23,248 nucleotides of DNA from a virus. Taxonomy: Duplodnaviria > Heunggongvirae > Uroviricota > Caudoviricetes. How positions within the stretch are numbered: the stretch's first letter is position 1; each line of letters begins with the position of its first letter. The stretch lies in the IMG/VR virus record IMGVR_UViG_2537562015_000009. One strand, 5' to 3'. The notes under the pieces are model-generated. The model was given only the letters and a program-made list of their open reading frames with translations, had not been told where the DNA came from and made no database searches. Positions 18,472 through 18,781 of this stretch are shown here, one piece after another. The translations under genes were made by a program, and so were the position numbers.

Positions 18472-18547
18472 GGCCCTTTAGCTCAGTGGTGAGAGCGAGC
18501 GACTCATAATCGCCAGGTCGCTGGTTCAAATCCAGCAAGGGCCACCA
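18472..18547 (+). tRNA. tRNA with CAT anticodon, IleX-like (tRNA-Ile2; formally Met/Ile CAU)
   Basis: Cloverleaf with acceptor GGCCCTT/AAGGGCC, anticodon loop CTCATAA (CAT at 18505-18507), 3' CCA; near-identical to E. coli ileX from memory. Confidence 0.8.
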
Positions 18548-18548
18548 A

Positions 18549-18625
18549 CCGTCACCAGTTCATCAGGAAAGAGCGTCAACCCTTTAAGTTGAGTGTGCGA
18601 GGTTCGAGTCCTCGGTGGCGGGCCA
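18549..18625 (+). tRNA. tRNA-like gene with atypical anticodon loop (CCTTTAA; C at position 33), identity uncertain, possibly pseudo-tRNA
   Basis: Acceptor CCGTCAC/GTGGCGG (one G-U), T-arm CGAGG-TTCGAGT-CCTCG, 3' CCA; anticodon stem TCAAC/GTTGA; loop lacks the conserved U33. Confidence 0.5.
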
Positions 18626-18627
18626 GT

Positions 18628-18703
18628 GCCGACTTAGCTCAGTAGGTAGAGCGACTGACTTTTAATCAGTAGGTCACCAGTTCGATTCCGGTAGTCGGCA
18701 CCA
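18628..18703 (+). tRNA. tRNA with TTT anticodon (tRNA-Lys-like)
   Basis: Acceptor GCCGACT/AGTCGGC, D-arm TAGCTCAGTAGGTAGAGC, anticodon loop CTTTTAA (TTT at 18661-18663), 3' CCA. Confidence 0.7.
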
Positions 18704-18706
18704 TAT

Positions 18707-18781
18707 GCGGGTATCGTATAATGGCTATTACCTCAGCCTTCCAAGCTGATGATGCGGGTTCGATTCCCGCTACCCGCTCCA
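18707..18781 (+). tRNA. tRNA-Gly (TCC), glyT-like
   Basis: Near-identical to E. coli glyT from memory: anticodon stem TCAGC/GCTGA, loop CTTCCAA (TCC at 18740-18742), T-arm GCGGG-TTCGATT-CCCGC, 3' CCA. Confidence 0.8.

Follow-up and report, generated by a model that had tools for sequence, protein, structure and literature searches.

A lambdoid prophage tRNA cassette in which two members carry the anticodon UUU

We describe a cluster of four tRNA genes in a lambdoid prophage of Escherichia coli, located at positions 18472-18781 of a 23,248-nucleotide (nt) stretch of viral DNA (IMG/VR record IMGVR_UViG_2537562015_000009; the whole stretch is hereafter called the window), in which the second and third genes (slots 2 and 3) both have the anticodon UUU. 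Evolutionarily, slot 3 is a copy of the host gene thrU (tRNA-Thr UGU) changed at two positions, and slot 2 is placed by alignment in the lineage of the phage genes argN and Arg(UCU), from which it has lost U33 of the anticodon loop. Our explanation for the whole, which we hold with middling confidence, is a lambdoid tRNA cassette in which slot 3 has undergone a working Thr-to-Lys shift and slot 2 is an old, Arg-derived relic.

The tRNA array and the origin of its members

By ARAGORN the window has four tRNA genes and no more. They lie on the + strand at 18472-18781: slot 1 at 18472-18547 (anticodon CAT), slot 2 at 18549-18625 (TTT, with the anticodon at position 35, called Lys), slot 3 at 18628-18703 (TTT) and slot 4 at 18707-18781 (TCC). 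The intergenic spacers are 1, 2 and 3 nt, so the head-to-tail packing that an earlier note had read from the sequence holds, as do its assignments of a TTT anticodon to slot 3, an ileX-like CAT gene to slot 1 and a glyT-like TCC gene to slot 4. Each of the four genes encodes its 3' CCA and has a cloverleaf with a 7-bp acceptor stem, D, anticodon and T stems and a 7-nt anticodon loop; U8 and U33 are both kept in slots 1, 3 and 4. Against the Rfam tRNA model RF00005 (gathering threshold 29 bits), slots 1, 3 and 4 all pass with 72.5, 74.2 and 65.6 bits, respectively (E 1e-12 to 1e-15), slot 3 having the highest tRNA score in the window. Slot 2 gave no RF00005 match even at E<=10, and its sole match in the Rfam clan was to tRNA-Sec (16.7 bits, E 1.5). 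The covariance check that the earlier note had called for thus bore out a non-canonical slot 2 and spoke against any doubt about slot 3, which is canonical. Likewise, the Prokaryotic Genome Annotation Pipeline (PGAP) labels tRNA-Ile, tRNA-Lys and tRNA-Gly in the 100% identical sequence of an enterotoxigenic E. coli (ETEC) strain (NZ_CP024232, O6:H16) and skips slot 2. Minimum-free-energy folding was discarded as evidence against slot 2, as it returned a non-cloverleaf hairpin for this gene and likewise for the genuine tRNAs of slots 1 and 3.

The outer members of the array are close to known genes. Slot 1, a tRNA-Ile2-type gene, is identical in sequence to ileZ of an Stx2 phage, and its CAU anticodon reads AUA after lysidine modification; slot 4, a tRNA-Gly(UCC), aligns with K-12 glyT and differs from it by one compensatory pair, C6-G67 to U6-A67.

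Slot 3 is K-12 thrU with the changes A26G (18653) and G35U (18662), the latter giving the anticodon UUU at 18661-18663. The same slot reads UGU in E24377A, ECL27977 and phage PhiR47_1, the commonest prophage allele (as in ECL27977) being identical to thrU, and about 1,000 extra prophage copies of thrU keep UGU. All invariant bases are retained, host tRNA-Lys has exactly the same lower anticodon stem and loop (TGACTTTTAATCA), and the 36-UAA-38 determinant for N6-threonylcarbamoyladenosine (t6A) is present. G35, at one of the anticodon positions that threonyl-tRNA synthetase (ThrRS) uses, is missing, and the identity set for lysyl-tRNA synthetase (LysRS) is complete (U34 U35 U36, A73, A31-U39). 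This UUU allele forms a single haplotype, which nine IMG/VR arrays and six of the 5426 complete E. coli genomes carry, all of them ETEC-type; A26G accompanies G35U in 9/9 arrays, and both slot-2 alleles occur beside it. From these features slot 3 is probably a true Thr-to-Lys anticodon shift, rare and recent, and is predicted to add one working tRNA-Lys gene to those of the host. A third anticodon on the thrU body occurs in phage SerU-LTIIb (KU052038; 1122-1197 of the compared stretch), where it is UCU (Arg) and comes with A31G and a D-stem change, a natural mirror image of the experimental Arg(UCU)-to-Thr(UGU) switch that Saks et al. reportedly made in E. coli in 1998.

Slot 2 aligns over its full length with canonical prophage tRNA-Arg genes. 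Its anticodon loop, CCTTTAA at 18581-18587, lies between TCAAC and GTTGA with C33 at 18582 and UUU at 18583-18585, just as the earlier note had it; the gene is further marked by C8 at 18556, a C31-G39 closing pair, G73 and an encoded CCA. The same slot holds the loop CTTCTAA (Arg UCU) in TW10690, and argN of Shiga toxin (Stx) phages has CTTCGAA (UCG). With argN as the outgroup, the slot-2 loop derives from the Arg(UCU) loop through U33C and C35U, and reading the alignment in the same way puts six substitutions on the C33/UUU branch against two on the Arg(UCU) branch. On this alignment evidence slot 2 is a member of the phage argN/Arg(UCU) lineage, a diverged descendant of tRNA-Arg. The earlier note had suggested such an ancestry for slots 2 and 3 alike; the CTTCTAA and CTTCGAA relatives uphold it for slot 2, and the identity of slot 3 with thrU apart from A26G and G35U removes it there.

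A 501-nt comparison of the window with TW10690 found 12 differences, every one of them within the 46 nt that open slot 2; the other ~420 nt are the same in both. Such confinement to 46 nt marks a clean gene-conversion patch, and slot-2 alleles are thus exchanged between prophages. The patch covers 18549-18594 in the window and 1650-1695 in the TW10690 stretch, and it puts the C33/UUU allele in the place of an Arg(UCU) one.

Fold, charging and spread of the slot-2 gene

Structurally, every stem position is paired in the window allele of slot 2, and over 19 slot-2 haplotypes 96.5% of stem cells are paired. In the acceptor stem, pairing is complete (100%) in every haplotype even though six of its pairs vary, and double-sided changes occur at three stem pairs. 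Given this pairing and the full-length alignment with tRNA-Arg genes, slot 2 is a genuine tRNA homologue, and the fully paired acceptor stem is consistent with its retained processing. Covariance scores nonetheless fall along a gradient, with 54-58 bits for the Arg alleles, 40-44 bits for the commonest C33/UUU allele and no reported match for the allele of the window and E24377A. Defects are limited to the C33/UUU class: A51.C63 is present in 12/13 of its haplotypes, C8 marks the window type, nine arrays have lost 1 nt of the D stem, and two mismatches occur in the D stem. One of the options in the earlier note, that both UUU genes might be pseudo-tRNAs, therefore suits the features of slot 2 best and does not suit the fully canonical, high-scoring slot 3. 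The other option in that note, tRNA-derived regulatory RNAs or decoys, drew neither support nor contradiction from the present analyses.

Functionally, slot 2 appears to have left one identity set without entering another. The E. coli arginyl-tRNA synthetase (ArgRS) recognizes A20, C35, U/G36 and A/G73, and LysRS the UUU anticodon with A73 (PMC9976931). Slot 2 retains A20, U36 and G73 and has U35 in place of C35, while its syntenic allele in TW10690 has all four ArgRS determinants. On the lysine side, U34 U35 U36 are present and A73 is absent (G73 in the window, U73 in most alleles), and the 31-39 pair is C31-G39 and not the A31-U39 of host tRNA-Lys. Placed in tRNA-Lys, C31-G39 cuts LysRS kcat/Km 100-fold, and mutants of the 31-39 pair retain Km and lose kcat, that is, they bind without reacting (PMC1483225). 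Moreover, slot 2 lacks both invariant U8 and invariant U33 (C8, C33), the latter conserved in bacterial tRNAs, where the U-turn is required for ribosome binding (PMC13276492). With C35, U33 and A73 lost and C31-G39 in place, slot 2 would be expected to accept an amino acid poorly and to decode poorly; it is unlikely to be a good substrate for LysRS and is most likely a relic that decodes badly or not at all, so that the label 'tRNA-Lys' follows from its anticodon alone. An unrelated, tightly spaced array of 11 tRNA genes on metagenome contig Ga0182024_10385765 (128-1030) includes a tRNA-Lys(UUU) with C31-G39, a pair that is thus compatible with Lys identity in other organisms.

The C33/UUU allele is old and common, being found in about 15% of E. 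coli genomes. Among 126 IMG/VR arrays picked by their slot-2 arm, the loop was CCTTTAA in 94, CTTCTAA in 30, and ACTTTAA and TCTTTAA in 1 each. We also binned the 5426 complete genomes by identity to the slot 2 of the window and took the allele type and PGAP label of each bin from sampled rows. Four genomes had matches at >=99% (window allele, no label), 403 at 95-99% (C8 type, as in E24377A, no label), 383 at 90-95% (commonest allele, tRNA-Lys), 273 at 80-90% (Arg(UCU), tRNA-Arg) and 813 at 60-80% (argN-like, tRNA-Arg). Database labelling of the C33/UUU allele is therefore inconsistent, with tRNA-Lys in a band of about 380 genomes and no annotation in a band of about 400, as judged from the sampled genomes. 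Two prophages of Shiga toxin-producing E. coli give a further case: they carry ileZ, a C33/UUU gene with the 1-nt D-stem deletion (1490-1565) and argO in that order, and the middle gene is labelled tRNA-Lys in one phage record and skipped by PGAP.

In a set of 185,579 species representatives, the anticodon arm with C33/UUU is restricted to E. coli and Shigella, so there is no deep conservation that could serve as an argument for function. Neither one-step intermediate between the Arg(UCU) and C33/UUU loops, CTTTTAA or CCTCTAA, was found on the slot-2 body in 2.9 million viral contigs; metagenomes were scanned for CTTTTAA only, and the one match there was a tRNA-Lys, unrelated to slot 2, from an array of 11 tRNAs. 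This lack of intermediates is a weak sign, fitting a single ancient origin followed by spread and, equally, a canonical UUU loop that would be harmful on an A20-bearing Arg body.

Weighing the explanations

Codon usage suggests what the cassette was originally for. Relative to 35 K-12 genes, the prophage open reading frames (ORFs) of the window over-use AUA 3.2x, AGA 6.5x, AGG 16.6x, ACA 3.9x and GGA 1.8x, and use AAA 1.3x and AAG 1.7x as often. The ancestral set of Ile2, Arg UCU, Thr UGU and Gly UCC matches the over-used codons AUA, AGA/AGG, ACA and GGA. The array in the window has lost the AGR and ACA decoders and gained anticodons for Lys codons, which are barely enriched. Since the most useful decoders were removed in favor of these, the switches look like losses of the original function of the cassette, and their occurrence in a particle-deficient prophage fits relaxed selection.

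A promoter-like element precedes the array on the + strand at 18434-18462, with a -35 TTGCAG (18434-18439), a 17-nt spacer and a -10 TATTAT (18457-18462), followed by a GC-rich 9-nt discriminator between the -10 element and slot 1. A generic promoter scan of the window scored the element at 18434-18462 below threshold. Its consensus, TTGCa-N17-TATTAT-.CTGC.ccC, is kept at >=90% across 188 arrays, whereas the DNA farther upstream is unrelated between phages; this conservation amid unrelated DNA suggests that the tRNA cassette travels with its own putative promoter.

Combining these observations, we posit a self-promoted cassette assembled from ileZ, a tRNA of the argN lineage, a captured copy of thrU and a captured copy of glyT. 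All four genes would be transcribed as a single precursor of about 310 nt, in which RNase P would cut each 5' end and exonucleases would trim the 1-3 nt spacers past the encoded CCA. In the ETEC prophage examined here, two members would then have turned to the anticodon UUU by point mutation. Slot 3 would be processed, modified and lysylated and would serve as an additional tRNA-Lys, with no obvious benefit. Slot 2 would be an old U33C and C35U derivative of a phage tRNA-Arg, its copy in the window also being without U8, and would persist within the co-transcribed array because its acceptor stem and T arm still allow RNase P to separate it from its neighbors. The expression, processing, charging and decoding of slots 2 and 3 are predicted here from their sequences.

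Several findings count against reading slot 2 as a relic. Slots 2 and 3 have switched to one and the same anticodon, UUU, which belongs to the tRNA that PrrC and PARIS attack, and variants of tRNA-Lys carried by phages rescue infection from PARIS (PMC11464382) and from PrrC (PMC11555353). The C33/UUU allele is commoner than Arg(UCU), in 94 versus 30 arrays and about 790 versus about 270 of the 5426 genomes, and it is also found in viable induced phages, a success greater than expected for a useless gene. Five independent changes in the acceptor and D stems of the C33/UUU class are all C-to-U and keep G.U pairs; in a pair-preservation test within that class, 5/6 transitions at C-G pairs stay paired, a non-significant excess (about p = 0.11). 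Lastly, slot-2 diversity relative to the neighboring tRNAs is about 3x in the C33/UUU class and about 2.3x in the Arg class, a comparison that is not decisive. The flanks were considered as a neutral yardstick for this diversity and set aside, being mosaic and largely non-homologous (nucleotide diversity, pi, 0.25-0.37), with spacers of just 1-3 nt.

A bolder reading takes the C33/UUU RNA for a maintained look-alike of tRNA-Lys that counters PrrC, RloC and PARIS, either as an uncleavable decoder of low efficiency or as a decoy, a proposal we consider doubtful. It is similarly doubtful, in our estimate, that the adaptive changes would be C33, where PrrC cuts, and C31-G39, in the part recognized by the PARIS effector AriB, and the decoder and decoy versions, even jointly, describe slot 2 with a rather low probability. 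As a decoder, slot 2 would be a functional, nuclease-proof tRNA-Lys that reads AAA/AAG when PrrC or AriB destroys host tRNA-Lys(UUU), with C33 and the foreign anticodon stem making it uncleavable. PrrC cleaves 3' of U33, between positions 33 and 34 (PMC2610378), so that C33 sits at the scissile bond, and a phage tRNA-Lys, not the host one, rescues infection from PrrC170 (PMC11555353). AriB recognizes and cuts the anticodon stem; phage T5 evades PARIS via a tRNA-Lys with a changed anticodon stem, and one U-A to A-U swap in E. coli tRNA-Lys ('Mut1') suffices for resistance (PMC11464382). The T5 tRNA-Lys, with the arm CTGGT-CTTTTAA-ACCAT, departs from host tRNA-Lys in pairs 29-41 and 31-39, and our guess is that the pair swapped in Mut1 is 31-39. 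Slot 2 differs from host tRNA-Lys at position 33 and at pairs 29-41, 30-40 and 31-39 (A29-U41 and C31-G39 versus U29-A41 and A31-U39), and it combines UUU with A37 and A38, a maintained cloverleaf and a high frequency. A hypothesis of anticodon-loop mutation has been put forward for nuclease-evading phage tRNAs (PMC10264068). Against the decoder stand the 100-fold LysRS cost of C31-G39, the replacement of A73 by G or U, the missing U33, the T-stem mismatch or C8, and covariance scores that are low or failing. The slot-2 body shows no move toward tRNA-Lys, and gamma-toxin, one anticodon nuclease tried on C33, cuts it normally; our literature search on the PrrC and RloC determinants at position 33 found no U33C data for PrrC. 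We therefore judge such a decoder unlikely.

The decoy version, in which a non-decoding mimic of tRNA-Lys would bind nucleases or tRNA-Lys-binding factors and so spare the host tRNA-Lys during phage growth, has the merit of explaining why a UUU-A-A loop and a tRNA fold coexist with C33, C31-G39 and a non-A73 discriminator, all of which work against charging or decoding. LysRS mutants at 31-39 that bind without reacting, the high frequency of C33/UUU and the putative promoter of the cassette suit it as well. Yet titration of an enzyme by one gene copy is hardly to be expected, the defects are equally explained by decay, and the protection that phage tRNAs give against P2-OLD is not competitive inhibition (PMC12445682), so that we find a decoy improbable. 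P2-OLD relies on paired CNG motifs to excise the anticodon arm from tRNA-ThrU, and the tRNA-Thr(UGU) of lambdoid phage 21 protects against it, with host thrU giving little or no protection (PMC12445682). Slot 2 is without CNG motifs. Slot 3 keeps the CTG/CAG motifs of thrU and has the same bases as host tRNA-Lys at 29-31/39-41 and throughout the loop; with such host-identical arms, neither slot 3 nor the common Thr allele of that slot is expected to resist these nucleases.

Two further explanations concern charging by ArgRS and selection on slot 3. Slot 2 might be arginylated via A20, the main E. coli ArgRS determinant, and read Lys codons, producing low-level Lys-to-Arg mistranslation with C33 as a damper. 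A20 and U36 are kept, G73 is tolerated by ArgRS, and the missing CTTTTAA intermediate (2.9 million viral contigs, metagenomes) would be understandable if it were harmful, though it is equally expected from a single ancient origin; with the strong determinant C35 lost and no benefit apparent, we regard this as very improbable. For slot 3, the Thr-to-Lys switch could have been selected rather than drifting in a dying prophage, by adding to the tRNA-Lys supply or by acting with tRNA-Gly(UCC) at lambdoid G GGA AAG frameshift sites, an idea that derives from lambda G-T. The full LysRS set, the pairing of A26G with G35U in all nine arrays and the presence of the allele on both slot-2 backgrounds speak for selection. 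However, the allele occurs in 6/5426 genomes as a single haplotype, its two backgrounds differ only by the slot-2 conversion patch, Lys codons are barely enriched in the prophage genes, the host already has six tRNA-Lys genes, and the host-like arm is presumably nuclease-sensitive. We thus think it improbable that the switch was selected, and return to a working slot 3 beside a relic in slot 2 as the preferred explanation.

Prophage setting and related systems

By gene content the window is a lambdoid prophage. Its order runs from the integrase (1-1131, - strand) through a cI-like repressor, replication genes, hok/sok, Fic, DUF968 and RusA to antiterminator Q (14461-15156), and from there through a PD-T4-6/Stk2-like kinase, a PP2C phosphatase and an orphan DNA methylase (17373-18422) to the tRNAs, a lom fragment and a tail-fibre gene (19424-22438). 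The Lom/Ail fragment (19157-19402) comprises the C-terminal 80 residues of the protein and lies within about 400 nt downstream of the array, and PGAP marks pseudogene fragments at 18782-19424. With the lysis, head and most tail genes deleted, and with them lysis and morphogenesis, the prophage is defective.

Among the other genes, an 823-amino-acid early-region protein (1422-3893, - strand) has a C-terminal Rv2179c-like 3'-5' exoribonuclease domain, and its first ~640 residues gave no family match. A homologue of the small RNA DicF (4529-4580, - strand; Rfam 70.8 bits) is likewise present in K-12 Qin/Kim-type prophages. The early/nin region encodes, on the + strand, a YdaT-toxin-like protein (7002-7427) and a Fic/DOC-family protein (12165-12659), and a complete hok/sok-type toxin-antitoxin lies on the same strand at 11435-11760, its sok RNA (Rfam 121.6 bits) overlapping a 70-amino-acid Hok/Gef ORF. 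Between Q and the methylase, in the 'moron' region of the late operon, a Ser/Thr kinase gene and an overlapping PP2C phosphatase gene (15226-16805, + strand; best PADLOC matches of the kinase mad6, PD-T4-6 and Stk2) are a candidate for a prophage-borne defence kinase with a built-in antagonist.

The closest named relative of the array is the ileZ-argN-argO cluster of Stx phages (e.g., Stx2a_WGPS8, AP012540), which occupies the same place on the map, between Q and the lysis or toxin genes that follow. As the earlier note had anticipated, the array sits where that cluster does and its anticodon set is different; in the window this place is upstream of where the lysis genes belong. The two share an identical ileZ, homology of slot 2 to argN and a promoter-like element before ileZ; they differ in that argN reads UCG and slot 2 UUU with C33, and in that argO is absent, replaced by the captured copies of thrU and glyT. 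The array thus has ileZ and neither of the two Arg anticodons (UCG, UCU) of the Stx cluster. Closer still is a common prophage cassette of ileZ, Arg(UCU) or C33/UUU, Thr(UGU) and Gly(UCC), as in E24377A, PhiR47_1 and vB_EcoM-606R7, with the same gene bodies and spacers and 95-98% identity, from which the window differs by UUU in place of UGU in slot 3.

The kind of event is known from phage tRNA cassettes on the one hand and from anticodon shifts, or tRNA remolding, on the other. Alloacceptor shifts of this kind have been described in mitochondria and in eukaryotic nuclear genomes (PMC4783518, PMC3923123). Slots 2 and 3 both share their hallmarks, an anticodon point mutation on a body of the old family and syntenic copies with the ancestral anticodon, and differ from them in lying in a prophage cassette within one bacterial species. 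Slot 2 has, along with its shift, lost U33 and other invariants, and the shift may be a failed or decayed one. Nuclease-evading phage tRNAs resemble the array in carrying the anticodons of targeted host tRNAs (Lys UUU, Thr UGU), and slot 2 in particular has a stem-loop unlike that of host tRNA-Lys. They are, however, canonical, chargeable and of demonstrated rescue, whereas slot 2 is without U33 and LysRS determinants, and slot 3 and its common Thr allele have host-identical anticodon arms. Our literature searches, on ileZ/argN/argO and on lambdoid prophage tRNA-Lys, tRNA-Thr and tRNA-Gly, turned up no description of these alleles, nor of any tRNA-like gene with C33 that about 15% of E. coli genomes carry.

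For the biology of lambdoid prophages, the cassette is a compact natural case of anticodon switching in a mobile element, with one body carrying Thr, Lys or Arg anticodons and another Arg(UCG), Arg(UCU) or C33/UUU. It also bears on the current re-reading of phage tRNAs as counter-measures against tRNA-cleaving defences, whose targets in E. coli are tRNA-Lys(UUU) and tRNA-Thr(UGU). Should the C33/UUU gene be functional, it would be a rare case of a natural tRNA that does without U33; and if it were a counter-defence look-alike of tRNA-Lys, no natural tRNA of bacterial type without U33 would have been given a defined role before it, and no such counter-defence tRNA would have been described earlier from temperate lambdoid phages.

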